64,000 nt of DNA from Dysidea avara (Eukaryota), in NCBI RefSeq assembly GCF_963678975.1, contig NC_089285.1:12087725-12151724 (forward strand), written 5' to 3'. Made by a program: the position numbers and the translations under genes. Each line of letters begins with the position of its first letter. Position 1 is the first letter of the stretch. This document shows positions 29,568-55,365 of the stretch, piece after piece. The notes below the pieces were generated by a model. It did no database searches, had not been told where the DNA came from, and saw only the letters and a list, made by a program, of their open reading frames with translations.

Positions 29568-29740
29568 TTCATCGTCCCTCAGATCTGTCCTGGGTTTTCG
29601 CCACGTATTCATTGTAGACACGCAGAAACAAGTGAGCCTTATGTAATAGAATCTACTACTTAGCAATAATTGCATGTTACGGGGAGTTCAAAGGTTTTGA
29701 GCAGTGAACTGGGTGACGATTTTTTTTTCTGGTTGTAGAG

Positions 29741-32700
29741 ATGAGCAGGAGGCCAGACGAATCCAAGAACCTGTACCGTATTCCACCGTATTATTACATC
29801 CATGTATTGGACCAGACTACCAATGTGACCCGAATTGAGATTGGTCCACGGACCTTCATCAGGCAAGATAATGAAAAGGTCATCGTTGGACCGGAAAAGA
29901 TGATCACGTGTCCTCCCCGGCACTACTGTGTTATAGAGAACCCGGTTGTCAGGGGTGATGACAAGAAACCAGTGATCGATAAGTCTGGGCAGATTAAGCT
30001 GCGTCATGCAGATCAGGAAATACGCTTGGCACAGGACCCATTCCCATTGTACCCAGGAGAGGTATTGAAGCAAGTGGTGACCCCGCTGAAGGTTGTGCAA
30101 GCCAACTCAGCACTGCGGCTTAGAGCTATTCTTGATTTTGAGTCGGACAGTGGAGAAAAGAGAGTTGCAGGAGATGAGTGGCTGTTTGAGGGACCAGGTA
30201 CGGTGTGTATGTGTGCATGATGCATATGACACAATGTGCAGATGGGCACACCAGTAAGGAGGTAAATAATCTGGTATTTAATGTAATGCAACTAAACTGC
30301 AATAAGTTCACAGCAACAAACCCTTTCTGAAACAATTTGGGACCCTCACATAGTTTCATATTACTTTTACTACCCTTTAAGGGATAATTGTATTCACTTG
30401 TACAAGGTTGTTTATTGGCTTTGGAGTAATTGATGCTAGCCAGTTCTGTTTGATGCACACCATTGTTACACAGGTACATACATCCCTTGTAAGGAGGTGG
30501 TGGTGGATGAAACAATTAGAGCCACAGTGATCAAGCCCAACCAGGCTATCAAGCTAAGAGCAAGGAAGGAAACATTGGTAAGAGGCATTACCATACTTAT
30601 AGTATATCTGTTATCTGCAAATCACCATGTGCCAAGTCCAAGGGTGTTTGGTTTAACATTGTGGTACTATAGTTTCATGTTCTTACCGTTTGTTGGTAGG
30701 ATCGTGATAACAACCCACGTGTTACTGGTGAAGAATGGCTGGTAAAGAAAGTCGGTGCCTACCTTCCTGGAGCTTATGAAGAGGTTGTGGATGTGGTGGA
30801 TGCCTATGTGTTGACTGACAAGGTTTGTGTTAACTTTGTTTGTAATTTCCTAAGCCGTTCAGTTCTGTTATAACTTTGCCTTTTATGATTTCAGGGTGAA
30901 TGTTATTTATGCTTTATTTATTGCCCACCATCTTTATGTTAGGTTGCCCTACACATGAGAGCCTACAGAACATTCAAGGATGTTAAGGATGTGACGCGCA
31001 AGAATGGAGAAGAGTGGCTGATTAAAATGGCAGATACTGAGGCACACATTCCTGATGTATATGAAGAGGTATGTGGATTGCACATGCATGCACTATTACA
31101 TTATTTTATAGGTTTTTAATGTGTAAATGTTTCCAGGGCATGATATTTGATACTTGCCATTTACCGACGATTATTTTATAGGTTGTAGGAGTGGTCAATG
31201 TCACTACACTCACCAACAGACAGTATTGTGTCATCCTGGATCCAGTAGGGAAAGATGGCAAACCACAACTTGGCCAGAAGAAACTTGTCAAGGGAGAAAA
31301 GTCATTCTTCTTACAGCCGGGTGAACGGCTGGAGAAAGGAATACAAAATGTGTATGTACTGGGTGAGGATGAAGGAATTATCTTGAAAGCAAATGAAGCA
31401 TTCAAAGATCCTGAAAGTGTAAGATACTATATCCTCATAATACAGAAATGTCAACTAGGTACAGTGTAATCTCTCTTTAGAAACTTACTAGCAAAACAAT
31501 GATAGGGACAAACTGGCTTTATACAACAAGTTTGCATCTGAAAAGGCATATTACAACACCTAAAATCTTAGTCTCAAAAAGTGTCCAATATAGAAGAGAG
31601 GTTCCATTGATATATTCTTATCCGAATGACTATGTTCATTTTCATAACATTACTACTACCAATAATGTCTGTCACGCTGTGGTACATGTTAATAATCACT
31701 ATAGGGTACTGACTATCGTCCAGGAGATCGATGGATGATTCGAGGTCCACTTGAGTACATTCCACCTGTTAAGGTTGAGGTGGTCACCAAACGCAAGGCC
31801 ATTCCACTTGATGCCAACGAGGGTATCTACGTCCGTGATGTGAAGAGTGGAAAGGTGCGGGCCATCTGTGGCTCTACATACATGTTGACTCAAGATGAAG
31901 AGCAATGGGCCAAGGAACTACCCCCAGGTGTAGAGGAGTTACTAGCAGAAGGGAAAGACCCTTTAGCTGACCGATCAGATCGATGTAAGTTGACATGTGT
32001 ATATAGTATGTGTAATGAGAATAATTTTTGTGCAGCACGGACATCTGCCAACATAAAGAGAGAAAAGACCAAAGTTGTTTCTTTCCGAGTACCACACAAT
32101 GCAGCTGTACAGATCTATGACTACAAGGAAAAAACTGCTCGAGTTGTGTTTGGTCCTGAATTAGTGATGCTGCGACCAGATGAACAGTTTACACAACTTA
32201 GCCTGTCTGGTGGCAAGCCCAAGAGGCCGAACGTAATCAAGTCACTGTGCTTGTTGTTGGGACCCGACTTCTGTACTGATATCATCACCATAGAAACTGC
32301 AGATCATGCTCGACTACAACTGCAGCTTTCTTATAATTGGTGAGCGTTATATAAAATTGTGCATAACAGTAGTGGCTCTAAACTATTAGTATTTTCATAT
32401 TTTGTTTAATTTTTTAGGCATTTTGAGGTTGTTGATCGCAGCGATGTAAAGGATGCTGCTAAACTGTTCTCCGTACCAGACTTTGTTGGAGATGCTTGTA
32501 AAGCTATTGCCTCACGTGTGAGAGGAGCAGTAGCTGGTGTACAGTTTGATGACTTTCACAAGGTGCATATTAGTGAAGATGTTGTAACACCAGCAATGCA
32601 CATTAGAATATGCACATACTGTGCTGTGTACGTACACACGGCAGACTTGCTGTATTACATACATCTTTGACCTGCTGTTGTTACACGATCACAACTACTC

Positions 32701-35974: not shown

Positions 35975-37274
35975 CTAGTCAGTGAGACAATCAATTAGAT
36001 CTTGAAAGTCAGTCACAAACCAACTGGCATTATCCTTGACTTTTTGTCTGATGACAGTTCCTCCATAACCAATAAAAGCATCCTAAACAGAAAACAACAC
36101 ATTACAGAAAAGGTTTGTTATTACAATAAGAAGTGACAAAGTACCCACTGGGATCTCCTTGACAAACAAAGTAAGCAAACGTGACCCGCTGAGCCATTTT
36201 GCATATATATTCCTTGGATTCCACTTTATTGTTTCTCTGTTATCTATAGTAACAAACTAAGAAGTGGACAGGCAAAGTTTCAGCCTTTTGTGATGAATAG
36301 TTTCGATGAAAGACAGTTGGAACAAGAGTAAACTTGATCTGTACAGCAACAATACAGCAAATAGATTACAGGCACTTATTTGATCGATCATAACTCATGA
36401 CTGAAACAAGCTAATCAGTCTGTTCACCATGAACCGGCACATCGATAAAGGTATAGTGTTTTCCATGCACGTCTCTGGTTGGACAAAGAAGGCAGCCATT
36501 CCAACAATGAAATGACAATGATAAACTTTATTTCTACCGCATTGTAAATAAGTGCCCATAACTCACATACTGTAGGTTGTACGAACACGAAACAAAGGCT
36601 TTTTCTTACTCCCCATGAACAGGAGAATCTGGTGGTGTATAGGTTTTATAGATTTGGGCTTTGTTTCAGTACATAAAGAAGTGATTAAAATGTAGGTAAG
36701 CTTTTTTAGCATGCATATTTTTACCAAGTTTATTTCTAAACTTTTTAATAGCAAAATGGAATTTCGCAAAAACAGCCAGTTTTCGCTCAGCGGGTAGCAA
36801 ATAGTTGAGGCTTTACTGTACGACACACAATATAAACCTAGTCACCAGTTTCTTAATTCAGCAACTGTATTTAGACACTTACAGCAGGTGGACAGGCCTC
36901 CAAATCAGTTGCTCCATCACCGATCATCACCACACTATGACAAGAAAAGCAGCGTGAGCAGAGTGGGGATTCTAATAAAATAAGTCAGTCAACTGCTGTG
37001 TGCAGCCTGCCCTGGACCCTTGTGTGTGTACCTGACTTTGGACCACAAACCAAATATACAGTGGAACCTCAGTTGTCCAAACCCCTTGGGAATATAGTCT
37101 GAAAAGTCCATATCTCTGAAATTGTATATAAAATATCAGTATTACTCAACTACCCTAATAGAATAGTCACTACTCTAATAGAGTATTCATTTCATAGTTC
37201 AGTTAACCAAGAATCTGGATAAGTGGGATCCAGAAAACTGAGGTTCTACTGTACGCTCTCCTCCAGTGTGCATG

Positions 37275-37352
<78 letters not shown>

Positions 37353-40300
37353 ATGTGTGTGTAGCAGGAGTGCAAACCACTCCAACAAGCAACCGGTAAA
37401 AACTTACACAGTCCATGTATGTTGTCCAGTTCTATAGGGCCAAATCCCAATACTACGTAAAGGCAAAGCAATTAAAACATTAAACAATGTATACTCGGTC
37501 ACTGTATAAGTAGTGGACATATGCCATTGGAGCATATCATTGAAATCCCCTGCACTGAAAAGCAAACACCAAAATACAACTTTTAACAGCATTGTATGGC
37601 TTTGTATACAATTGGTTTGAAAAAATTAGTATGCAATTCCAAGAGCTGGTCAGTTATTCTATCATACACATGCTTGATGGCTTTTTAGACCCTCATGCTG
37701 TTATTGAACATGTCCTTCTGTCTAGCAACTAAACTGGACACTACTAAACCACAAGAACTACCCTACAGGTGTAGGTGTATGTGTAATTGACCACACAAAT
37801 AAGCATGGTAGCATTATATCAGTACTTACCATTTGTAACCTTTCTCTTTCTTTAGCTTTTCAACTACAGCAGGTTTACCACCTGATCTACTTGTTGGCTC
37901 TTGATCATCAAAATGACTATAGCAACCTGAGCAATAAACAGATAGTGTAAATGCAATTGGGTGGACCAACACACACTACACTACACACACACTACACACA
38001 CACACAAAGACTTGTGGCTGCCGTTGCACACCTACCCAATGAACTAGCACTGGGACACCTGTGCACTACTCAGGTGCTAGGAGTCAGATCCTCCTGGGGC
38101 AGGCTGTGCCATGTCTTACAGATGAAGGGGCGGGTACCCGAAGTCCTTCAACTGCTATATGAGACATGGACAGTCGGCATGTACTTGACCAGTTTACATG
38201 GGTGGTACAGCTGGATGGACTGCTTTCCCAGTTGGCACCAGGCCACCAGGTCCCCTCATACAAATATTATGAACTCTTGATATGAGTAAAGTTTCTTGCT
38301 CAAGGAAACAACAACATCAAAGTGGCATAACTTGGAATCGATCTTGAAACCTTTCGATTACCAGACCGACACTCTAGCCGCTTGGCTATTATAATACTGT
38401 CCAAAAAGTAACTAGTGCATGATCATGCTTAACCCTTAAACCCACAAAACTGGATTTAAAATGTGATGTAACAAGGATTAAAATGACACCTACAGTTTTA
38501 CCCTAAGCTAAACGGTGAGGCCAAAACTAGCCATTTAAGTAACTTTTCAATAAAGAAACGTGCAAACCTTTTACATAGCTTTATAATATTACATCCATAA
38601 CTAGATGGTGGTTGTTCCTATCACCAAAGTTCCATTCAATTTGCCATTAAATTTGCCCTCAGGCCATATATGACTCTCATGTGAGTAAACCCACAATCAA
38701 AATTAAACACATGGCTAGAATTTTGACACACGGAGATGCGACTTCATACCAAGTAGGCCGTTGTAGTTACAGTGTTTATTTAGCCTTCTCCAAGTAGCCC
38801 AGTGAACAGAATTTTGTTGTTGTTGTAGGCTATAAGAATTAAGTTACCCCACCTACTATCGCCATGTGTGCCTAAACATGCATTTCCCAAAAGTCAAGAG
38901 TTAAAAAAGAACACTCTTCAAATTGCACCATAGATGCTACAGGACAGCCACATTAAGTAGTGTGTACTGTTCTTCATGAGTAACAGACTGGACAATAGTT
39001 GAAACTGAGCTGAAATGGCCACATATACTATATATTATCTTCAGCAAGTGCACATGTGTACAGTTACTTTCTTTCACTAAGGAACATCTGAGTAGTATAA
39101 TAATCATGAAAACATGTTATAAAAGTTAACAACATATTAAAAGTAACTAGTACTATTTACCTCTAAAAAGTAAGTTACATGGGACTAAAAGTAACATACA
39201 ATAGTTCCTTTTTTGAAGTAACTACCCCAACCCTGCCAAGAGGCACAAGGGTGGTGTGTACCAAGTGATGCCACCAGATGGCATCCTGTGCTTGAGGTGG
39301 CATCCTGTGCTTGGCACACAGTAATTCAACCTCATAATTGTTGTCAGCATTAGACAGCTATTTTGCACACACACACAAGCACTACACATACACAAGCACT
39401 ACACACCTTTGCTATCAAAGATTATCCTGTTTGCATACAGGTTATCCCTAGGTATATTCAAGTAGTCCATCACTGGCTCAATAACACTCCTAAATCCCCC
39501 AGATACCAGGTAAACATGAGTGCCCTTCTTACGAAGAAGATCAATAAGTTTCCTAGCAAAACAAGATACACACATTTCCACTACCACCTCGATTGAGACA
39601 TTTATAGCACTTGCAGAAGAAACCATTTTTTTTTAAATTCTACACATAAACTTACTCCACATTTGGAGATAATATCTCTTGTGGAGAATGCAGCTTAGAA
39701 AAGTCTTTGAGCTACACAAGAGAGAGTAATTACTGTACATGTACATTGGAGATGACCACAAACTTGAAAGCTACATACTACACAGGTAACAAACGGGACT
39801 ACATAGCGTACACACCCACACCTATTCTAAAGCTGACGTACAGCATGAATATGGTAAAATTGCAAACATGCCAACAGCACAAACAACACTGGTAGTAACA
39901 AATCAAACATAAACAACAAGGAATCAAGAGTATGCAAGCAATAGTTCACAATGCGTGGACCTACACCACTGTGTCACTAATACCCTTGATCGAAAAGAAA
40001 TTAATACTTAAAACTTCTGACATGAGACTATCGCTATTATTTTTTTGCTATGTGGCTTAGTACACTGGGAAAACTGGACTACAGCCTCTCCACTTTTATC
40101 CAGAGGAATCCACTTTCAAAATCGAAGTACTCTAATAGAGCAGTCAAGTGAGAAGGAACTAGATATCCCAGTAGCTATATGATGGAAACTGTTGAATTTT
40201 AGGGTGAAAATGGAATATTTTTAGACCATATGTATGACATTTACAAGTGTAGGATATGGCTTTAATATATTGCTATAGTCTGCAGCTTTTAGATATGTAT

Positions 40301-41539: not shown

Positions 41540-44500
41540 ATGTCAAGACATCGAGACATACGGCGTTTGGACTATTCTGAAGGTACTGTATAGTGTATAT
41601 AGGTTAGGCTTTGCTTAATTATGAATAAAAGTACAACAGTATATTAGAAATATTCTAAATAGTGCACAGCCTTTGTGCAGTACATAATAAAAGCATACAA
41701 AATTACATTTTGTAGATTTCGGGGAAGATATCTATGGAAGATCATTAGAAGATGATTATGCTGTATCACCAACGTCAGGTAATCAAATAATTTTTTTGAC
41801 TAGTTCCTTTGCAGTCACTACATTAGTCTCGCGGCGCCCGACCCTAAAAAGAGGGTCTGGTGAAACTGTGTACAAAAAGTTTGGCGCTGCTGGAATGTTG
41901 GAAGCTCCAATCAGATCGCTCCATTTCAAATTGATTATGTAATGCGTACATTTCAAAAGATTCGCGGCTTACGGTTAATTACATCCGGTGACCCTGCCAC
42001 TTAAACTCATTGAGAAAACAGCCATACAATTCTGTTGGGTTCGTTTTAATGTTGAATAAATATGGTAGCGCTATTAGTTTGGTGATGCTGTAAGCGGATC
42101 TGGTTGAATGGATGTTGTGACGTAAACAGTGCACTTACGTAACAGGTAAAACGTCATCCAATAAACATTCCAGAGCTCAATCTTTTTGTGCACAGTTTCA
42201 CCAGACCCTCTTTTTAGGGTCAGGCGCCGCGAGACTCACTACATTGGATCCACACAAACAAAACACCTGACTGTAATGTAAAACCTCAATACCATTTACA
42301 TTGCATAAGCAAGGTGTGTGAACTTGACACCCATTGACGGAAGAGCACTGCTTAGACTGCATATGCTGCAAGAAGAGAGTTGGCCAATAAAGTAAACTGT
42401 TTGACTGGGAATTGATCAGTAAAGATATGTGACCCGTTCTGCGAAAAGGGGTCTTATAGCCTTTCCAAATTGTCAAGTTTGACTACTCATAACTCCATGT
42501 TTTCAACCTATCACCTTCATATTACACCCATCCATAGTCCTATGTTAGGGGTATAAGGGTACCAAATTTCAGGGAGATACCTCATTCACAAGTCAAGTTA
42601 CAGGTTGCCAAGTACATGCAATTGAAAAGGCTATAAGACCCCTTTTCACAGTCCGGGTCACATATATTTATTGGTACTTAGTCAAATAATCAATATGTGG
42701 TAATAAGTTTAATATGTGGTGATCAGATCATCAGGCATGCTACAAAAAGAAAAAAATATTGTAAGTTAAATACTTGAGAAGTGAAAATAATTTCTTGTTA
42801 AAACATAAAACAGTCACTTTTTTTTCCATTATCAAAATGTTGATCTCAGTTGCTAATGGATATACAGGGCCTATGTAGTGAATACCATTTGTTCTATACT
42901 CTTAGCACAGTTCATCTTCAATCGAGAGAATAGTCAGGGAGCATCATTAATGTCCTACATGTCATCGAAGGAGCCAGTACCCATCTCTCCGTTAAATGTG
43001 TCTACTAAAAGTGATACCCCCATCGTGAACCTGGATGTCAAGACAGTTGGTATCTCCAACATGAGTGATGGTTGGTATATGCGTTGTGTATATAATATTA
43101 TATGTTAAAATGAGATATGGCTAAAGACAGTGTATTTAACTATGCTACTGTAAAATAGTTTTCTTTGACGTATGTATAGTGCAGGTTCAATTTAAGAAGT
43201 TGTGTGTGATGGTAATTAATGTTTCACAGTGCAACGCACATACATACATACATACGCACTATGATTAACTGATTCCTGAGAAAACAGCTTAAGGTGTTTT
43301 TTTTTTCTCAAGAGAGGTCATTCAGCCAATTAATGATAACAAAGGATATCATTTGTGGCTTCAAGTTTCATTTCAACATTGAGAAAAGGTCACCAGCTGT
43401 GCATTTTATGGCTTCTCATGAAATTATTAAAATATGGTAAACACTTTGATTTGGTATGTTAGACATTTGAGTGATGAGATTTAAAAAAATGGTTTTAGCA
43501 AATCAAGCAGTACTAGAAATGAGGCGAATTCCAAAATCCTGTATAATTCTACCAAGAGTTAATAATATGGACCCTCCCATATTATTAACTCTTGATTCTA
43601 CTCTTGAGTTATTAAATGTTTTTGAGGGATTGGCTCAATGTTGGTATACTGTAGTGACAACTTATCTCCTTATACAGTTCAGCTTGACAGTGGGATACAG
43701 TACATCAGGAATGTTGTTGGTTACCAGTTCAGTGAAGAAGATATGGTAGATGCAATGAGGCATTGTAATATGGATGCTGAAGCTGCTTTAAACCAACTAC
43801 TGGAAAGAGGTTAGTTATAGTTACAGATGTTCATGCTACCTTCTAATTGTGGGGTACGGTACATTACATTACCAAGAGTTAAAACGGTGTGGTCTCAATG
43901 GTACGTACGCTGTGGAATAAACTACAGTGTGAGCTGTGAAGCAATCCAGTCATTTTGTGGCACGTTAACAACAGGGGTGGGTGGATTGGTGAATGCAATT
44001 CAGGATACTAAATGCCATCATATTGCAGTGACTGTTTTCATGTGTACTTGAACAATGAACACACTTCACAATAATTACTGTGATTCATGTAAATAACACA
44101 TATAATAGTAGTATAGTATATTTACAGTTTCTTTGTTGATCAAGAAGCATAGTAGTGTGTCATGTACGGCCCAAGAAGCCAATGTGCTACACTGTGGGCG
44201 TATTGACAGGAGGAGAGATAATGCAATTTCACACAGTTGTTCCTTTATCTGATTATATAGTAGAATTGCCCACCTGGTCTTGCAGTCTATATCCAAGTTA
44301 TCATTGTCTTAGTCAATCCCACAACCAAAATCCAGCATTTTTTTCTATTACTACTTTTCACTCACTTTGCAGAAGTTGCTATAAAACACAAGTGCATACC
44401 TGAAATTTGGCACCCTTAAATGGGCTCAAATTCAAATCCCAGCACTAAATTTTGTGTAAATCCATTGACAATCCACGAGGTTATGACCGATTGTCCGCGT

Positions 44501-47500
44501 AAAAACAGCAAACTTTTGTCACACCTACAGGGTAAACCACTTCACGGAATTAAGTTGAAAATCAGTTTGTGGATAGATTAACCATCGTAGGAGTGCTTTT
44601 TTGTGGTTTGGAAGTCAAGACAAAGGCCATGGACATATAATGCAAAACCAAACACATGTAACAATTTTGTGATCAAATTTCATGAACAAAACACACGTGC
44701 TAGGCAAGCCACTTAGAGGAGTGAGTTATGTAAATGGATTAATCATCATAGAAAGTGTTTTCAAACCACTGAGTTGTAATGCTAAACCCACCTACATGTA
44801 ACTAGTGCATGATCAAAATACTCTAATAGTACAGTCATCTTATTACTCCATGGATACATTACTCTTTTGGGTAATTACAGATGTGATATATGTATCAAAT
44901 AGCCAAGCTATAAAAAAGGGTGCAGCCTCTCAAAAAGGTCAGGGTGAAAAAGTTGCAAAACCAATGATGGTGACCAAGAAAGGTCTGCGATGGTGGGTTA
45001 ATGTCAAATTTTAATAACGAAAATTCAGGTGAATTTGGTGCCAAATCCTACTAATAGAGCAGTCACTTACTCTAATACAACAGTCAAGAACACTGATACA
45101 CTCTGATGCACTACTCTCAGCCTTCAAGTGTAATGATCAGTTTGAAATCATAAGTAGACTTGATTTTGAGCACTGCATACTCAAGAGCATAATAAACCTT
45201 TTCATGGTGATGTCGCACCAATTCTCTATATTTGGGGAACTCTTGGAGTACCCACTAACATCACTAAAGTTGTTAAAGTGCCTAATAAATTCTCATCTGC
45301 GTACTTGTTATTATGATTCAGTGTACACAATTCTCAGCTAGTACAGGGCCAGAGTCCAATAGCCTTAGTTAGCTCATGTTTTTTAGTTACCCAATGCATT
45401 GTGAATAAGATATTATAATATTTACATGGGTACTATTTCTTTTTACTGTGTGGATATTGCACAATTGTTTCCCTATCCATTCAGTTATTGTACACCCTGT
45501 GTGTAAAGCTATTTCAGCACGTCATCAAAATTATGTAGTTTATACTACAGCTGTAGTTGCCATTTGGTGCACCACGTGCTCCGAGAGTAGTATGGTCAAT
45601 AGTGCAGTGATTAGCTATAGGAGCCGTTCTTATTGTCTTGTTAGCTTGACTAGCGACATTTCCCTGTACTGAGTACTGACTCCCAGTGTTAACTGATCAA
45701 TACAGAAAGGGGGATTTCAAACTTCAGAAGAAATAATTACAGTAGCTGGATTTTTAGCAACTATAGCTATCTTCCCAGAGATGACATTAATCTCAATTCA
45801 TTAGAAGAAGGACACAATTACAGGATTGCATTTTGTGTTCGGAAAACTGGCTGATTATCAACCTGGACTGGCTGCTAAGTTTGCATATAGGCCATAGTAA
45901 AAGCACGGATTCAGGGCTACCAAATTGTACCACTTCCAAAAGTTTGTATGTGTAATGGTGAAGCTAAGAAAAGTTGCACCAACCTTGAGGAAAGCAATGC
46001 CAGATTGCTTTCAGAAATCATTTGGAAAGAAAATGGCTGTTATTTTAGATTGTTTCAAAGTTTTGTAGAATTTAGTGAACAGAGCAAAGACATGGTCAAA
46101 TTATATTAAGCACTACAACACTGCCAAAATACTTTTAGGGATTTCTCCTCAGGGTGTAGTGTCATTTGTCTCAGCGAGTTGGGGTGGTCGTGTCAGTGAC
46201 TAACATTTAACAAAACACTGTGGAAACCGTTGCCAGGGGAGTTGGCAGACCGAGGTTTAACATTGCCAACTCTGTACAGTAGGAGCCATGCAGACTGCAT
46301 TTCACGTACCTGCATTTACCAAGAAAACACTTTTCCCTGAGTGTACAGGGCCAGTAATGATGGAGAAATGTGGCACACCTGTCAAAGTTGTTTTTTTTCC
46401 AGAGTACAAAGCTCCTCGGATCGATTATAAAACTTCATGGGTGCGTTCCTGCTAGTATTCAAAGAAATTCCTCTTCGAAGAAAGTTCCAATTTCTTGAAA
46501 ATATATTTGTCCTCCACATAGTTGACATTTGAACAAACACAGCTACTTCCACAAAAGTAGGCCACACAAAACTAATCTTGGCTATTCTTGTTATATGATT
46601 ACAACTTTGTATGTGTGTAGCATGAACTATAGCTAGTTTACAACAATGGTGCATCATACTCATGATATAAAACCATAATATCTAACCCAGGCCAGTGACA
46701 ACACAGTTTCTAGCAATTTTAGCATCCTTCACCTAACCACTTACAAACTGGTTGTAGGTATGGCTTAAAGACCTTCCACACTTTAAGTTGCTCTGCTGTA
46801 ACAATACTTTTTTGTAGAACCAAGTAAGGTATTGTATGGGCTCCACAAGATGAAAACTGTCAGCTAACAAGCCTACATTGCTAACAAACAGGTTGACCCC
46901 ATCAATAATAGACCTGTATTGCTTCTTCATCGGGAAGGCTTTCAGCCTAGCTTGACATACATGACATTCTGCTGTCAATACAGAACACGCCGTGCACGTC
47001 TTGCTATAGTTTCTGTAATTTTGGTCACGTGCTGAAATACAGGATAGCTCAGACTAACTCTATAGTACGTACTAACATATTATAACATGTGACAATGTTA
47101 ACGATTGTTATCTGTTGCAGGCAGTAAACATGAGAAAGGACCAAAAAGAGGTAACAATACCACATCATTATTGTCATCATACTGAGCAGACCTGTGTACT
47201 ATTTGGCTAGAACACCTCTGCTCAGTATGTCAGTGTATGTACAGTGACATGAACTGTAGACTACAAATTGTTTATTGAAGTTAACAATGAGTATAAAATG
47301 AAGGGCAGTCTGTGTACATGTTTGACAAACAAAAAGTCTTATCCTCCTGTAAACTTATCAGGAATAAATTCATTTAATCATGTTTAAATACACATTAATT
47401 GTACAAACTGTAAGTCTGAATTTCTTGAATGATGTTGTGCAATTTTCCCTTTGTTGCAATGTTTCAAATACTGATCAAATGTTTATACAGCAATAATGAT

Positions 47501-50500
47501 CATTAGTGTGATTAATTTTTGATGTATTTTTGGTTTGCACCTGTACAGTTACATGTTTTGTTTGAGGACATCAATTGGTACATACTTGGACTAATTCACC
47601 TACAAAGCTATTCAGTGCCTTGTCTGAGATTGACCCTCATACATGTATGTCTTTCACCAATTCAATTTTTGTCACACAAAGTAATTTTTTATGACAATAC
47701 TTTCTTCAGATTTATATACTATTATCAAGCACACTGTTTGTCCTTTATATGAGAGTGTGTTGCTTTAACCAAGAGTAAATAATGGAGTATTCTTGTTTTA
47801 ACTATAACAATAATAGCAGGAGTAACTTAAGCAAGTGTGTGTACGTGTGCGTTTCTTCACTGTATGATGAAGGTGTTTTTTTTTCTCTATATTGCTATCC
47901 CTTGCTGTGCTGTGGAATTACATTTTGATAAGGTAAGACTCAGACATTTTATCTGATAGTAAACCTGTGCGTAACCTATTTAATGATCACCACAATGTAT
48001 CTACTGACAACTTTGACACATCTCATGTGTCATTATCACAACTGGCTAGCCTGCACTCACAACAACAAAGGTCATTTGAAGGCAGTAATGCTAAGACCAA
48101 CCAGCGGAGTTCAGTTTCCGATTTTTCACTCAATGACCTTGCCAATATGTATCTCCACAAGCCACCATCACAAGACATTGATGTGCTACATGGTGTACCA
48201 TCAGGTGGTGATGATGGTGAGAAGACCTTTACTTCAACTGCTTCATTGTCATTAGCTGATTTAGCCAGTGCACACATATCCACTGCAGTGAGAACAGATG
48301 GAGAGACAAGTTCAACTAACCTGTCACTGTCTGAATTAGCTAACCTACATGTGTCCAGTCACTCAATGTCTACCTCATTCCAGCAAAGTGAAGACATCCT
48401 TGCTACATTATCCGCTAGTTCTCCAGTGTTAGAGGCTAATCCAACTGCTTCAGCAGGTCTGGATTTTGGTGCTGGTTTTGCTACCCCTAAAACTGGATCC
48501 ATGTTGTCCCTCTCACAACTAGCCAGTTTGGGCACTAAATCTGTACCGCCCGTTGCTGTAAAGTCACATGCCACTCAGACAAATAGTGGTGGTCTTGCTG
48601 CTTTAGCCACTGCTCATTTCAGCTCCATGGTCAGTGGTCACACTGACAGCAGCAACCCAATTGATTTAAAGTCAGTACGCCCACCACCAGGATTTAAAGT
48701 ATTGGAAGAACCTGTGTTGAAGGCATCTGAAGATATTTCATTGTCTTCTGTTGTGAAGAAGCTAACAATACAAGAATCTAATGTTATGTGTGTTAGCTCA
48801 GCTAATGCATCACAGTTTGCTGGTATTTTGTGTATGCCAGAGAAGAGACGGTCAAAGAAACTAGACGTTCGGCACAGACACTTGAGAAAAAAATCATGGA
48901 AGAAAATATCCAACTTGCACATTCCCCGGTTTAGCTTTGCCACTCCTTCACCAGATGACTTTATACTGAATAGACAAAAACTGGTGTTTACCTCTGACCC
49001 TCAGTAGTAATATTAGTACAGATGGACATATCCCTTTACTGTTATATTATTGTATATTTTTATATGTATACGTGTGGGTGTTTCATGATTGTGTCATGAT
49101 AAACTTATCGACTCTGGTGTTATTGTGATTACAGTGTACATATTGTGTTTTACTACCACTTCTACTATGCCGTTGGCACAGCAGCTGTGTGCATGGAAAG
49201 TTTTGCAGTATGAAATGTCACAGTACATAAACAAATCATTGTCTTCATGATTGTTTTTGTACATCATTAGAGATGCTTATATTTTGCACTGTCATGTGTT
49301 GAAACAATGTCAGATAGATGAGGAGTTGGCAAAGTTAGTGGCAGAGTTCTGATCACACCCCTGACGACGATTCATTGCATAGGGCTTCTAGCTGCTTATT
49401 ATCAGAAAGTCACTACCTCGAGGGTTATAATCACTAAATGATACTCATTGTTGTAAGCTTGAAAATGGCAAACAGTCTTTATGCAGAATCTTAGCTATTA
49501 TAAATTTTTGCACAGACTTTATTTTTACTACTATCTACAAAATCTGTGACAATTACATACCATAAAACTTTCCATGTACACAGTATGTAAACCAAGGTAC
49601 CTAGCAGTGTATGGTTTTCTTATTAGCACTCACCCTTGACGACAGTGTACTCAGTCATAGGACGAAAGTGGTGGTGTCTGGTTCAAAGCCCACCCTGGGT
49701 TTCCACACTCCAACAGATGATCACAGCAGGTCCCCCAGAGCCCTAAGGTGCGTGGTGTGTCAGTTACCTGTTTAATAATAAGTTAATGTTCTGTTGGTCA
49801 AATATATGTGTCAGTGACATGTGCTTTGAGTAGTTCATGTTTGGTTTGTGTATGTTGTAGTCCATGTAGCAGTAATCACACACCAGTGAGCGGTGGTACA
49901 CCGGATTCTGGGGCACGAGAACTCACCCTTGATTCAGCAAGTAAGCGTAGTCTTCCTCCTCGCAACAAACACAAGGTACTGTAGCTGCTGTACTCATGTC
50001 ATTTGTGTTACTATTCAATCACTCAGCACATTGATGTTATTGCGGAATATAAAAAGAAGTTAGAAAATGATCGGCCCATTCTCAACCTTGTGATTGTTGG
50101 TTAGTGTATGTGTTGTGTTTGTATAGTATAGTGTGATGTGCATGTCTATCATTCCTTCAGGACACGTGGATGCAGGGAAGAGCACTTTAATGGGTCACCT
50201 ACTTTACAAACTAGGACATGTTTCTAAGAAGACGATGCATAAGTATGTTACTATGATGTTGATATGTATTTATGTGTGTGACTATGTCTATTACAAGATA
50301 TGAAAAAGAATCGACTAAAGTTGGTAAAGCATCATTTGCTTTTGCGTGGGTCTTGGATGAAACAGGGGAAGAAAGAAACAGGTTTGGACTGTGTACAAAA
50401 ATTAAGTCCCATACTGTCATGGATTTGACCATGTCTCCTTATGGATGCAATAAGCCCATTCATTTTATACACACAGCTTCTTTTGTAGACTCCAGCAGAA

Positions 50501-53500
50501 CATGATGTACAATAAAAAAAAAATACACCTCCACTTGAACTACTCTAATTGCAGTCATTTTCAAGTGTCTACTGTAATTCAGTACCATGATACAGTATTA
50601 ATGCAAACATTGTTATATAATTGAAGAGGTACAATGATTTTTGCAAATTCAAGCTGTAACTATGTCCCTGGATCACATGAGTGTTGCACTTCCTCTGCAT
50701 CCCAGAGGTAGGCGTTTTATTTCAAAACATTTCCCCACAAAACAAATTACACAGCACATGTCATATAGATGTATTACCAACTCTGATGCTAGCCTAACTC
50801 GTGTGTTGTTTTTCACTTTAGGGGTATCACAATGGATGTTGGTGTACACATGTTCACTACAGACACAAAGAATATAACTTTACTGGATGCTCCCGGCCAC
50901 AAGGACTTTATCCCTAACATGATCAGTGGAGCAGCTCAGGTAATAGCTTAATGCTGGGGTGTATTGTAAATTTAGTGTCGTGGTACATGTTGGTATTTTC
51001 ATATGGTTGACGAAATCCTGTGTAACAAAAACACTATCATATTTTACTATTAGTACATTCACCAGGAATAGGTTGATGTGGGTACAAATCAGGACCAGCA
51101 CCAGCACCACATCTGTTGGTTTCTGCCAAGATTCCTACTAGCATTGCGTGTTCTTTTAGAATATTTGTATTCCATTCCTAATGTTGTGATGATGTGTTGT
51201 TCTCACTACTTTAGGCAGATGTAGCAATTCTAGTGGTTGATGCCACTACTGGAGAGTTTGAAGCTGGCTTTGAGGCTGGTGGACAAACAAGGGAACATGC
51301 AATTCTAGTTCGATCATTAGGTGTACGGCAAATAATTGTTGCAGTAAATAAGATGGATATGGTAAGTATAGTGTGTGCAAGTAAAATATTTAAGCTAAGC
51401 AAACCTATAGCTACATTATTATAAGGCTAGTATTGTTGTTGTTGTACCCATGGAGGTGGTAAAGGAATATCACATGCTGTATTTCCTCGTATAAAAGCCG
51501 CATTCAATTAAATGCCTGTCTCGATTATAAGCCGGGGAGTTTCCAGCACCTTTGGAAAATAGACGCCTGGTTTCAAATAGAGGCCCGGGCTATTACTTGA
51601 GTCTACTGTTAATGGCTTTAATTGCTTCCTTTGTTGTTGCTACTGCTGCTTCTTCATACTTAAGTTTAGACCCTTCTGAGGGATGAAGGTATTACAAGTA
51701 ATCACGTGAGTAGTCCAGGTGAGTCTGCGTCATGCGAATGTGTACGATACAACAATTTTCCAATCATTTTAATCCTTGACTACACTTCTTTATATAGTCA
51801 ACACATGTATCTATGCTTACCAATCCCGTCGTACCACCACCCAAATTCGATTAAACACCCAGCATCGGTTGGACTAATCCAAAATAAACACCCTGCCGCA
51901 AAAAAGGCCCGGGCTTTTATATGAGGAAATACAGTAATATACTATGAGGAGAATTTATGATGGAAGTCGATCCAGTTTTCAGCATTCCCACTTTAATTCC
52001 CGTAATGGGAATCATGAATATTTTCCTAAAGTAACTCAGGTACATGATGGCCCCAGGTACATGATGGCCCCAGGTATATATTATAGTGCATTTAATGATG
52101 TGTACTAATTTGTTGTATGTAGGTTGATTATTCTGAAACAAGATTCAATGAAATTTTTCAGAAATTGAGGACATTTTTAAAACAAATAGGATTCAAGGTA
52201 TATATGAAGATTATAATCATGTAGTCTTTGTGATTAGCCGACATCCTTGGTGTTGTTGACCTACAGACCTTTAGTATACCACTGCAATTATTGTATCTAC
52301 AGCCATGTTATATTACAAAATCAATACCTATGATACCAAATCTTGGAGTAGAGTATTGCCACTTGGTATCACGATACCAGGTAGTATCGATAGTATTGCA
52401 CAACTGCAATTATAGTATGATTGCTAAATTTCAGTGTGTGCATGTGTGAGACAGCATAGCCAAGTAGTTAGAGAACTGGCATGAAGGTCCCAGGTTCAAT
52501 GCTTGGTTATTTCCAGTTGCTTTTGTTGTTGTTTTCTTGAGCAAGAACTTTACACACATTATTCCAGTTTACCCAAATTTCAATGAGAATCTGGTGACCT
52601 GGTGTCAACTGGGGAAGCAACCCACCCAGCTATAGCAGTACCTGGTTTTAACTGGGAAGCAAATACTAACTGTCCATGTCTCACATAATGGATGAAGGTT
52701 CACATTCACCTGTGAAACATGGTACAGTTGCTAGCCCTGGATTAGCCTGTGTGGACTCACAACACCTGAGTAGCATACAGGTGTCCCAAGGTTGGTCCAC
52801 TGGGTAAGCATGACCATACTTGCTTTAAGGCCTTTTGTGTGTGCATGCGTGCGCGTGTATGTGTAGTAGAGAAGTGGAACAGACATTCACTCGATCTATA
52901 ACTTCCACGTAAATATGCTGTGATGTCCACCACATATTGTTATAATATTGTCTATCCTATAGGATAGTGATGTAAGATATCTACCATGCAGTGGTTATAC
53001 TGGAGAAAATTTATTAGAAAATCCATCACATCCAGAACTTATCAAGTGGTGCAATGGTCCTCCTTTAATGAAACTAATAGGTAATGTATATAGCTGAGAA
53101 ATTAACATAGTAATTACTCTATCACTTGAGGTGCTCTAGCATGTAGCACAATGACATAATCACAACAATTATACAAAGCTTTCCATTGCTATAGTTTTGT
53201 GTATCAAAATTGCCATCAGGTGTAATCTGAAAGTATCGATCCCAGTCCCCTCTAGCTGCATGTATGTAAAATCTAAGATATAAATAGTTGTAATCTTTGC
53301 TGAATGGTCTTCAGTTCTAAGATCCTGTACAACAGCACATGTTGCATGTATTACTTGCTAAAGCCAATAAATCTCTAGGATTGTAAATGATCCAAATGAT
53401 AACTGCCATACTTCTGTATTGCTTTTTTATGAGTTTGAAGTCAGATTGTGATATTTAGCCAATGGCTTTTTACCTATGTGCACTGTATAATGTGTACAGC

Positions 53501-55181
53501 GTATGTATATTGTATGTTAATCAACATTATGAACAGTGTAATTTGCCTTTTATTTAGATACGTTTGATACTCCTACTAGACCGATAGAGAAGCCATTTAG
53601 ATGCTCCGTGGCGGACATATTTAAAGGTGAATTGACTATAACATGTATAGCTGCCAATATATTGGACTAATTGTAGAAGTATATAGGTAACTACTTACCA
53701 TTCAGTAAACGGCTGTTGGTATACAAGTTGCCATGTTCACTGTCTGTAAATCATGTATACCAATAACCATTAAATGTTTTGTGTAACCAGTGTGTGCACT
53801 GTGCGTAATCATAGACAGCAAGACACGTTGAAGTACTATCTCCCCACTGTGGGCTTGATATATGCACTAAAAACAGAAGGCACAAGTATAACCAATAGTC
53901 TGTTTCACTGCATGGGCACAATAAGTGTGAAGTCTCAAATCATCATATTGTACACGTACAGGTCAAGGAGCAGGTTTCAGTGTGTCAGGTAGAATAGAGT
54001 CGGGTAGTCTACAACAAGGAGACAATTTGTTAGTGTTACCAGCCAACGAGTACGCTACTGTCAGAGGTGGGTCACTGTTGGTGTGTAGACTAAAAGCTCT
54101 TCACTATATCACAGGTTTGATGATAAACGAGGATACGGTTCCATGGGCAGTGGCTGGAGACCACATTGTTATTACACTGCAGGGAATAGACATTACAAAG
54201 ATGAAGTATGTATGTATTACAATGTAATATGTGAGGTGTGTGTGTGTGTTGTACTGTAGTGTTGGGAGTGTGTTGAGTGAAGTGGAGAAGCCAGCTAGAG
54301 TGTGTACTATAATACAAGCACGTGTGCTTGTGTTTGATATTGAGTTTCCTATTACTCAAGGATACCCAGTAAGTGATGTCTACACACTACAGTATATTAC
54401 AACATACTTGTGCACGCATACATAGGGTAGTTACATGCACGATACACACAATAAAAGTTTCTTTCCACTTCCCAAGGTACTGTTCCATCACCAGTCAATA
54501 GTAGAGCCAGCCACTGTACACAAGTTAGTCAGCCAGTTACACAGGAGCACTGGAGAAGTGGTTAAGAAGAAACCAAGGTGACCATTAATGTCAGCTTCAC
54601 TCCGTAACTGGTGGTCACTTAGTCATAGTACTTTAAGGATGTAGTGGGTTACTTCTGAGGGAAAAGATCAGTGTGTTTACACTTGTGCTATGTTGTACTC
54701 AAGAATTTTCCTAAGTGTTTTCACCCGCTATTAGTTCCGTATGCACATTACTAATTTCATGCCCTCCCTGATATGCACAACTGGTAATTGTGACACCATG
54801 TTTTGTCAATGATGTGTTTCTTAGGGCTGTGAAATCTGTGTAAGTATAACTAGTAATAAAACCTGTTTTATCCAATGTGTTTGTGAGTCCCTTTCCCAAC
54901 CAAACTTGATATCTACAATGTGCAGTTTACATGTTCACTAATAATAAATTTGTGGTAGTGGCCATTCTTTGATATGTAACAGTATCCTTACCCCACTGTC
55001 TGCATTCAGAATTGTTTACCACAGGTGTATAGTGAAGAACTCTACAGCCTTGATACAACTGGAAGTGTCTAGGCCAATATGTGTGGAGACATATGAAGAC
55101 TGCAAGGGATTAGGACGATTTATGTTACGTTATAGTGGCAACACCATAGCAACTGGAATAATCACTAAGGTAAATCACTAA
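41540..55181 (+). CDS. HBS1L: HBS1-like protein (eRF3/eEF1A-family GTPase of no-go/non-stop decay), about 21 exons
   Basis: N-terminus [14 protein letters not shown]|[21 protein letters not shown]|AQFIFNREN...|[44 protein letters not shown] matches human HBS1L ([48 protein letters not shown]...UBA-like). GTPase and domains II/III: [131 protein letters not shown]...[38 protein letters not shown]...[15 protein letters not shown]. Exons: 41540-41582, 41716-41778, 42906-43070, 43678-43809, 47120-47149, (alternative 47944-49007), 49627-49747, 49861-49975, 50027-50099, 50161-50242, 50298-50381, 50822-50939, 51215-51361, 52123-52197, 52963-53080, 53558-53626, 53962-54066, 54115-54205, 54260-54368, 54477-54577, 55025-55181 (stop TAA; an alternative GTAAAT donor exists at 55170). 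Phases are consistent throughout. Confidence 0.9.
41824..42236. mobile_element. Mutator-like MITE in HBS1L intron 2: about 47-bp TIRs (AGTCTCGCGGCGCCYGACCCTAAAAAGAGGGTCTGGTGAAACTGTG) and a 9-bp target-site duplication CACTACATT
   Basis: Left TIR 41824-41870, right TIR (reverse complement) 42190-42236. CACTACATT directly precedes the left TIR (41815-41823) and follows the right TIR (42237-42245). Confidence 0.75.
45840..46400 (+). pseudogene. PIF/Harbinger (DDE_Tnp_4) transposase relic with frameshifts, in HBS1L intron 4
   Basis: + strand frames give ...[20 protein letters not shown].. (the GWPGSxHD-like motif) followed in another frame by ..[17 protein letters not shown] (LLGDSGYPL-like). 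The - strand ORFs at 46382-46978 may be a second, Myb-like ORF or noise. Confidence 0.5.
47944..49007 (+). CDS. HBS1L: Large alternative exon of HBS1L encoding a SKI7-like, serine-rich, low-complexity region that ends in a PSPDD motif and an in-frame stop
   Basis: The acceptor CAG|AC at 47943/47944 is in phase with exon 5 (47120-47149). A 354-codon open frame in 38% GC DNA ends ...[34 protein letters not shown] (TAG at 49005-49007) with no in-phase strong donor before the stop. It carries a 5x repeated peptide motif (SLSQLASLH / SLADLASAH / SLSELANLH / SLSQLASLG / LAALATAHF). The exon length is a multiple of 3 (phase 1-1), and exon 5 can also join directly to exon 7 (49627). Confidence 0.75.
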
Positions 55182-55365
55182 TTTTGTCAACGTTGTGTTG
55201 CATGACATACTTTTCAGATTGTCAGATGACCACAACTGAATTCCACTCAATGAAAATGCATTTAATAATTCATAGAACACACCAATAATTATTGTACAGC
55301 ATAAAAAACCAGCATGACTAACTGATATTTTTAACTCTCGTATGATATAAATACAACACACACAG

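Follow-up and report, generated by a model that had tools for sequence, protein, structure and literature searches.

The 64,000-nucleotide stretch of DNA considered here (contig NC_089285.1, positions 12,087,725 to 12,151,724, forward strand; hereafter the window, whose own numbering is used for all coordinates) is the HBS1L locus of the keratose demosponge Dysidea avara. Intron 5 of this gene, which separates the exons for the N-terminus from those for the GTPase domains, harbors an open exon (47944..49007, + strand) that very probably serves as an alternative last exon. The product would then be an adaptor of the SKI7 type without a GTPase, as it is in human. This reading draws on comparisons of sequences and on the literature about SKI7 (PMC5389692, PMC4942675, PMC11540850, PMC6143672, PMC3597508, PMC7491326).

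When a rough spliced model was used as a query, its best match was a 665-residue protein named 'HBS1-like protein [Dysidea avara]' (P0022). An exact splice-chain search yielded a coding sequence of 21 exons, 41540-55229 on the + strand, whose translation is identical to P0022 residue for residue (100%), which identifies the locus. Exons 1-5 of the splice chain that reproduces P0022 (41540-41582, 41716-41778, 42906-43070, 43678-43809, and 47121-47150, + strand) encode 144 residues plus one base, and their product is a UBA-like, HBS1_N-type domain with Pfam matches to GIP1_N, UBA_RAD5A, and HBS1_N. Exons 6-21 (49627..55229, + strand) encode a linker and the translational GTPase domains and belong to the long HBS1 isoform, in which the SKI7 exon would be skipped. 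Every exon from 2 to 6 starts in phase 1, and exon 5 ends in that phase, its donor GT lying at 47151-52. The leftover G of exon 5 forms an Asp codon (GAC) with AC at 47944-45 or an Ala codon (GCA) with CA at 49627-28, so that both joins are in frame; the compatibility of phases (1-1) with both neighbors, proposed in an earlier, sequence-only reading of this DNA, thus holds. Two details of that reading need correction, since exon 5 ends at 47150, 47149 being the end of its last full codon, and the neighbors of the open exon are exons 5 and 6 in the RefSeq-type model rather than 5 and 7.

At 356 codons, 47937-49007 (+ strand) exceeds every other open stretch on both strands of the window, whose G+C content is 38%. 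At about 6.5% stop codons per random codon, the chance of such a stretch is about e^-24. It is bounded upstream by TAA (47934-36) and downstream by the tandem stops TAG TAA (49005..49010, + strand), and the position of the stop is kept in all of the 21 homologues described below. The 1064-bp open exon at 47944-49007 was delineated correctly by the sequence-only reading, with AG at 47942-43 and TAG at 49005-07, followed by TAA. These 1064 nucleotides (nt) of coding sequence and stop correspond to 354 residues plus the split Asp codon. The predicted short isoform would have 498 residues, or 500 if the exon starts at 47938, which is also possible. Since the stop of the SKI7 exon precedes all of the GTPase exons, that isoform would be devoid of the GTP_EFTU, D2, and D3 domains, which are encoded by the long isoform only. 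Three antisense open reading frames (ORFs) of 71-101 residues overlap the exon at 48023-48943 (- strand) and are probably by-products of the codon composition of the sense strand.

The exon peptide matched 21 homologous ORFs, one of them identical (in a 5.8-Mb ENA assembly contig) and the others sharing 37-69% identity with it; none of them bears a name from any source. The frame of the homologues stays open for about 270-430 codons, and their stop is located 6-10 residues past the segment PSPDD[FY][IV]..Q.Q.F. The exon evolves under purifying selection. Thus, pairwise ratios of nonsynonymous to synonymous substitution rates (dN/dS) across the sponge exons range from 0.25 to 0.54 (Nei-Gojobori), with dS values above 1.5, and hence saturated, between distant species. 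For the closest pair, dN/dS is 0.33 in the C-terminal 80 codons vs. 0.61 elsewhere. The genomic setting is conserved as well. In five other sponge loci (L002, L003, L004, L005, and L008), whose contigs are genomic and contain introns, the orthologous 'ALTLDDSVL' exon follows the SKI7 exon at a distance of 250-1500 nt, and in L008 the SKI7 exon also lies downstream of exon 4. No HBS1L exon was found within 6 kb on either side of the SKI7 exon in L009.

Homology with SKI7 was revealed by a profile of the exon, A1, which is an alignment of the 21 sponge sequences. Its top match among 177,635 Protein Data Bank sequences was human HBS1L3/SKI7 (9g8m_E, 'Isoform 2 of HBS1-like protein', construct 369-632; E=0.0035; the chain numbering is offset by 364, as verified on two C-terminal motifs). 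The alignment pairs ANASxFAxxLC of the sponges with human A-R559-PSA-F563-AST-L567-C, and FxFxTPSPDDYVxxKQ with human PFDFKSASPDDIVKANQ (609-625). SKI7 has been defined by a 'SKI7-like motif', RxxxFxxxL, and a 'Patch 4-like motif', PFDFxxxSPDDIVKxNQ (PMC5389692, PMC6143672), whose metazoan consensus sequences are A+PShFAahL and IaPF[D/R]F[K/D][S/T]aSPDDIV+A, respectively (PMC6143672, PMC5389692). The exon has a candidate SKI7-like motif and a Patch 4-like motif, in the same order as in SKI7 and at the extreme C-terminus. The candidate SKI7-like motif (11 residues, 48801..48833, + strand) would be the counterpart of the human RxxxFxxxL helix in the RRP43-MTR3 cleft. Relative to human ARPSAFASTLC, it has kept A, S, F, A, L, and C, with Pro replaced by Ala and Arg by Asn. 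The Patch 4-like motif with the C-terminal helix (23 residues, 48921..48989, + strand) corresponds to human residues 606-628, which contact CSL4 and then form the helix that contacts RecA1 of SKI2. The motif itself is aligned with human 606-625, and F, F, SPDD, and Q are invariant across the sponges and human. The resemblance of the PSPDD end to the patch of Ski7 and HBS1LV3, noticed in the sequence-only reading, was thus borne out by the profile alignment. The description of the PSPDD motif as exosome-binding fits only one half of it, however. In human, the exosome is held mainly by the SxFAxxL helix further upstream; the PFDF half does contact CSL4, but the PDDIV..NQ helix contacts SKI2 (PMC11540850, PMC5389692).

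Related proteins were also found outside of sponges. An exhaustive HMMER search of 1.84 billion representative proteins with A1 gave 13 matches at E<=1e-3. They include the 'HBS1-like protein isoform X2' of the fish Stegastes partitus (XP_008295229.1, E=3.5e-4), a protein of the chiton Liolophura sinensis that begins with the HBS1L N-terminus (XP_064604527.1, E=4.4e-8), and several unnamed ORFs, all of which have PSxF..LC upstream and end with PF.FSTPSPDD..K.KQ..F. Comparison of A1 with a profile of non-sponge SKI7 isoforms, A5, using hhalign returned a probability of 98.5% (E=1.6e-15, 68 columns), a value that is partly circular because members of A5 had been found with A1. A word-indexed protein search with a mixed alignment of sponge and human C-termini (A2) gave five fragments and no annotated isoform. 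AlphaFold2 predicts the exon chain to be disordered (mean pLDDT of 48), with a longer basic helix and a C-terminal helix at residues 329-342 of P0001 (pLDDT of about 76); the latter mirrors the human C-terminal helix that contacts SKI2.

Upstream of these motifs, the exon contains six copies of an LSLxxLA(S/N)xH motif (48030-56, 48126-52, 48249-75, 48324-50, 48507-33, and 48591-617, + strand), which are candidate SKI3-binding helices. The sequence-only reading had counted five copies. The expression given there matches three times only, but the repetition is real, as the core L[SNAT][DEQA]LA[SNT] has six matches vs. 0.006 expected, a number that none of 20000 shuffles reached. AlphaFold2 places short helices on four of the six copies. 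No tandem repeats were detected in the DNA of the exon, which argues that the copies are old and diverged. The sponge homologues have 3-7 copies of the motif; in one lineage (P0016, P0020, P0021) LSLSELASMH and a 30-residue spacer occur in 3-5 near-identical tandem copies, and ISLADLAK is present more than 15 times in P0154, an unnamed Logan ORF. Judging from this tandem expansion and from P0154, the copy number is evolutionarily labile. As other SKI7 isoforms, those of the fish and the chiton included, have from 3 to more than 15 copies of the pattern [LIV]SL[AS][DE]LA, the LSLxxLA repeat is, at the level of sequence, a shared hallmark of animal SKI7 isoforms. A weak first domain of the alignment between A1 and 9g8m_E sets the motif on human N451-LSL454SEL-I458-AETI. 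Human residues 451-464 form a helix that contacts SKI3 between its TPRs 29 and 30, an interaction disrupted by the L454D/I458D substitutions (PMC11540850). The 7-mer NLSLSEL is exactly common to sponge and human, with a rough chance estimate of about 0.6%. This weak domain match, the shared 7-mer, and the presence of the repeat in SKI7 of other animals suggest that the LSLxxLA copies may be SKI3-binding helices.

A further conserved element, PPPGF (48681..48695, + strand), is found as PPPG[FL] in 20 of the 21 sponge SKI7 exons. Elsewhere, the fish SKI7 isoform has two copies, and P0157 and the long HBS1L of Halichondria also contain it; among long isoforms overall, only 2 of 120 have it. The element fits the ligand consensus of the GYF domains of GIGYF1/2, PPG-phi (PMC12171015, PMC10187677), and its role as a GYF-domain ligand is speculative. 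No paper linking HBS1L or SKI7 to GIGYF was found.

The exon is preceded by a conserved intronic 3' splice-site region (47877..47943, + strand), which consists of a pyrimidine tract followed by TTTGATAAG-GTAAG-ACTCAG. Its three AGs end at 47932, which is out of frame, and at 47937 and 47943, both of which are in frame. Use of the second one (47936-37), located 6 nt upstream of the AG at 47942-43, would make the exon start at 47938 and add Asp-Ser. Acceptors were scored using a position weight matrix built from the gene's own 20 introns (20 acceptors), with leave-one-out for the real sites. The acceptor at 47944, which had been called excellent, proved to be weak, with 2.1 bits and rank 35 among the 141 AGs of the intron, while real acceptors score from -1.8 to 9.0, with a mean of about 4.8. 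The 13 bases that precede its AG, TTTGATAAGGTAAGACTCAG, are rich in purines. The acceptor block is kept in six of the seven sponge loci, in which the exon proteins are merely 40-70% identical, approximately. In L008 the third AG has been lost and the second one kept, and the exon may therefore start at either 47938 or 47944. In L009, the GTAAG block is missing because of a 17-nt deletion, and what remains is an ordinary CAG acceptor, rich in pyrimidines and likewise in phase 1. All seven loci have a phase-1 AG exactly where coding conservation starts, and the sequence around it is of two kinds. The segment 47924-47946, TTTGATAAG-GTAAG-ACTCAG-ACA, combines three AGs within 12 nt with a 5' splice-site-like AAG-GTAAGA at the alternative acceptor. 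As a lead, this block could regulate whether HBS1 or SKI7 is made, by binding U1 or as a decoy or recursive-type site.

Downstream of the tandem stops, the segment 49011..49626 (+ strand) presumably comprises the 3' untranslated region with the cleavage site, and then the rest of intron 5. A T-rich block (TATATTTTTATATG; TATTTTTATAT) is found about 40-70 nt past the stop, at 49040-49075 of the window, and is kept at orthologous positions in L002-L009. The block contains TTTTTAT, which resembles a cytoplasmic polyadenylation element and may be due to chance in an AT-rich genome.

According to the favored reading, that of an alternative last exon, skipping of the exon would join exon 5 to exon 6 and give the 665-residue HBS1 GTPase, the partner of Pelota in the rescue of stalled ribosomes. 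Use of the weak, conserved acceptor together with cleavage and polyadenylation past the TAG would give a GTPase-less protein of about 498-500 residues, composed of the shared 144-residue N-terminus and a 354-residue, mostly disordered tail with short linear motifs. In this protein, the SxFAxxLC and PFxFxxPS segments would dock on the exosome core, in the RRP43-MTR3 cleft and on CSL4, while the terminal PDD..Q..F helix would touch SKI2 and the multiple LSLxxLA helices would bind SKI3. The tail would thereby connect the cytoplasmic exosome with the SKI2-SKI3-SKI8 helicase complex in the 3'-5' decay of mRNA. We infer all of these binding functions by homology with human HBS1L3/SKI7, and the splicing, the polyadenylation, and use of the SKI7 exon as a terminal exon from comparative evidence.

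Several observations weigh against this reading. The human anchor arginine, R559, is Asn, Asp, or Gly in the sponges, and it is the single defining detail of SKI7 that the sponge exon lacks; exosome binding was lost by a human mutant in which R559, F563, and L567 had all been changed. The acceptor at 47944 is weak and atypical by its matrix score, and neither AATAAA nor ATTAAA is present between the stop and exon 6. The support from hhalign is reduced by its partial circularity. The single exon sequence retrieved nothing relevant from the Protein Data Bank or in a Pfam scan, and only the profile search led to human SKI7. The 22-column motif-only profile A3 also missed human SKI7 and its SKI3-binding helix in the Protein Data Bank, A3 being too short for such a retrieval. 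Finally, no protein in a collection of 5.8 billion sequences joins the HBS1L N-terminal exons to the SKI7 exon, and NCBI lists the long isoform alone for D. avara.

Other explanations of the open stretch have been weighed. Instead of or besides acting as a terminal exon, the exon or its 5' part might be a cassette, spliced from a donor at 48204, 48216, or 48822 to exon 6, which would produce a GTPase-containing HBS1/SKI7 hybrid. The sequence-only reading had found no good in-phase donor. This does not hold for the scores, since the in-phase GTs at these three positions reach 6.2-6.5 bits, inside the range of the gene's real donors (2.6-9.0), but these sites do fall at variable or gapped residues of the 21-species alignment. 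Some predicted vertebrate long isoforms, such as isoform X2 of Anolis carolinensis (812 residues, P0028), fuse the 5' part of the SKI7 exon to GTPase exons, so that splicing from within a SKI7 exon may take place in some animals. Plant and fungal SKI7 proteins also retain the GTPase (PMC6143672, PMC3597508). However, the conserved C-terminal motifs, under stronger constraint than any other part of the exon, would be missing from hybrid isoforms, and the position of the stop is conserved, all of which makes a cassette unlikely.

Expression from a nested gene of its own, or from a promoter inside intron 5 that would yield a product devoid of the HBS1L N-terminus, has a precedent in Candida albicans, which makes SKI7 from an alternative transcription start (PMC3597508), and it would agree with the weakness of the 47944 acceptor. 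Nevertheless, no start codon is conserved; in the D. avara exon, the earliest in-frame ATG comes at residue 68, after two conserved copies of the LSLxxLA motif. Since coding conservation starts at the acceptor in all seven loci and no ATG is conserved, splicing from the upstream exons is favored over an internal promoter. The relatives in fish and chiton also carry the HBS1L N-terminus on the same protein, and a nested gene is therefore considered very improbable. Less credible still is a non-productive 'poison' region with a functionless peptide, in which inclusion of the exon or retention of the intron would introduce a premature stop and lower HBS1 levels through nonsense-mediated decay. 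The stop codon does lie upstream of 15 further exons, and the acceptor region is weak yet conserved and adjoins the 5' splice-site-like GTAAGA. A poison region would have no need for a frame open over 350 codons, however, and it is at odds with dN/dS values below 1, with invariant protein motifs, and with homology to SKI7 across animals, so that it can be given hardly any credit.

Beyond the alternative-last-exon reading, its more unusual elements might be combined in a bolder proposal, which as a whole is rather doubtful. The 3-7 LSLxxLA helices could engage several SKI3 molecules or raise avidity, making the tail a multivalent hub instead of a simple two-ended bridge. As a GYF-domain ligand, PPPG[FL] could link a GIGYF/4EHP-type translational repressor, acting at collided ribosomes, to decay by SKI and the exosome. 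Lastly, the juxtaposed 3' and 5' splice-site motif AAG-GTAAG-ACTCAG could set the balance between HBS1 and SKI7, by binding U1 or as a recursive or decoy site.

Other features of the window and of the searches can be mentioned briefly. Exons of a major vault protein gene (Pfam Vault, Vault_2/3/4, and MVP_shoulder) are found upstream of HBS1L on the same strand (about 29700-32350, + strand), and a long (TG)n/(CA)n microsatellite lies between the two genes (about 37250-37400). A 102-nt open segment flanked by AG and GT in phase 1-1 (44881-44982) would be compatible with use as a cassette between exons 4 and 5, an idea that was dropped; the segment is absent from the RefSeq-identical model, and exon 6 accounts better for the resemblance to the human linker, which in this segment is probably spurious. 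The region 40-56 kb of the window has no match to an RNA family in Rfam. The Logan contigs of P0006 and P0012 were rejected as transcripts, as they are genomic and contain introns. A scan of metagenome contigs with the exon profile gave 80 matched stretches, none of them real, and a scan with the DNA pattern of the acceptor element gave a single match, L007, which is due to chance and does not belong to HBS1L.

The closest known counterpart is human HBS1L3/SKI7 (HBS1LV3; chain E of PDB 9g8m-9g8p), which is encoded by the same gene, HBS1L. Human HBS1L and SKI7 share the segment 1-144 (PMC11540850), and the shared N-terminus is of 144 residues in the sponge as well. Human HBS1L arises when exon 5 is left out, and SKI7 when it is retained as the final exon (PMC3597508 supplement; PMC5389692). 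In both species the alternative exon directly precedes the exon that encodes the linker ..VSGxKxTxGF.., and the point of insertion is the same in terms of the alignment, the linker being TKMTVSGKKQ.MGFE.P in turtle and lizard. Use as a last exon, which is predicted for the sponge, leaves out the GTPase in both. Both tails are also disordered (in the sponge, by prediction) and contain LSLxxL helices, SxFAxxLC, and PFxFxxxSPDD[IV]..Q..F, with the stop a few residues further on. The sponge tail nevertheless differs from that of human in being shorter (354 vs. about 488 residues), in its six motif copies, in the absence of the Arg of RxxxFxxxL, in the invariant PPPG[FL], and in having Trp and basic residues in place of human DLYKTFLYSRQ; outside of the motifs, identity is undetectable.

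Isoforms of other animals, including XP_008295229.1 of S. partitus, XP_064604527.1 of L. sinensis, and those of invertebrates (Brunkard and Baker, 2018), similarly combine the HBS1L N-terminus with [LIV]SL[AS][DE]LA repeats, PSxF..LC, and a C-terminal PFDFSTPSPDD as in the sponge, and the fish protein also has PPPGF. The spacers and the number of copies, from 3 to more than 15, vary greatly, and these isoforms have been annotated from transcript-supported gene models, whereas the sponge isoform is unannotated. For yeast Ski7 and the fungal and plant SKI7/HBS1 proteins, the same bridging of Ski2-3-8 and exosome has been proposed, and the Patch 4 or S3 motif is common to them and the sponge protein. 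In unduplicated fungal and plant species, one gene gives both products, as proposed for the sponge. In contrast, the fungal and plant SKI7 proteins keep a GTPase-like domain, and what produces them is not an alternative last exon but the use of cassette exons or of alternative 3' splice sites; the contacts between yeast Ski7 and Ski3 are not conserved with animals (PMC11540850).

Alternative splicing of SKI7/HBS1 has already been established in animals, fungi, and plants (PMC3597508, PMC7491326, PMC6143672), and it represents an ancient case of one gene serving two mRNA-surveillance machines. The predicted D. avara SKI7 isoform is a new, unannotated, and expected poriferan case of this established arrangement; a search of the literature found no paper that combines Ski7, Hbs1, and sponge. 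The locus also exposes an annotation gap, as the predicted short HBS1L isoform is missing from NCBI for this species. A survey of metazoans covered cnidarians, echinoderms, cephalochordates, molluscs, brachiopods, and priapulids and left open when animal SKI7 lost its GTPase (PMC6143672). Since the sponge locus has the human-type layout, with the 144-residue N-terminus, a predicted GTPase-less last exon, and the same point of insertion, this layout would predate the split between sponges and bilaterians, which suggests that a GTPase-less SKI7 isoform was already present in their common ancestor. As the SKI3-binding helix of human SKI7 appears to be a copy of the LSLxxLA motif, docking on SKI3 is a probable role for the whole repeat, and the tails of sponges and other invertebrates may represent useful natural variants for studies of that interaction.

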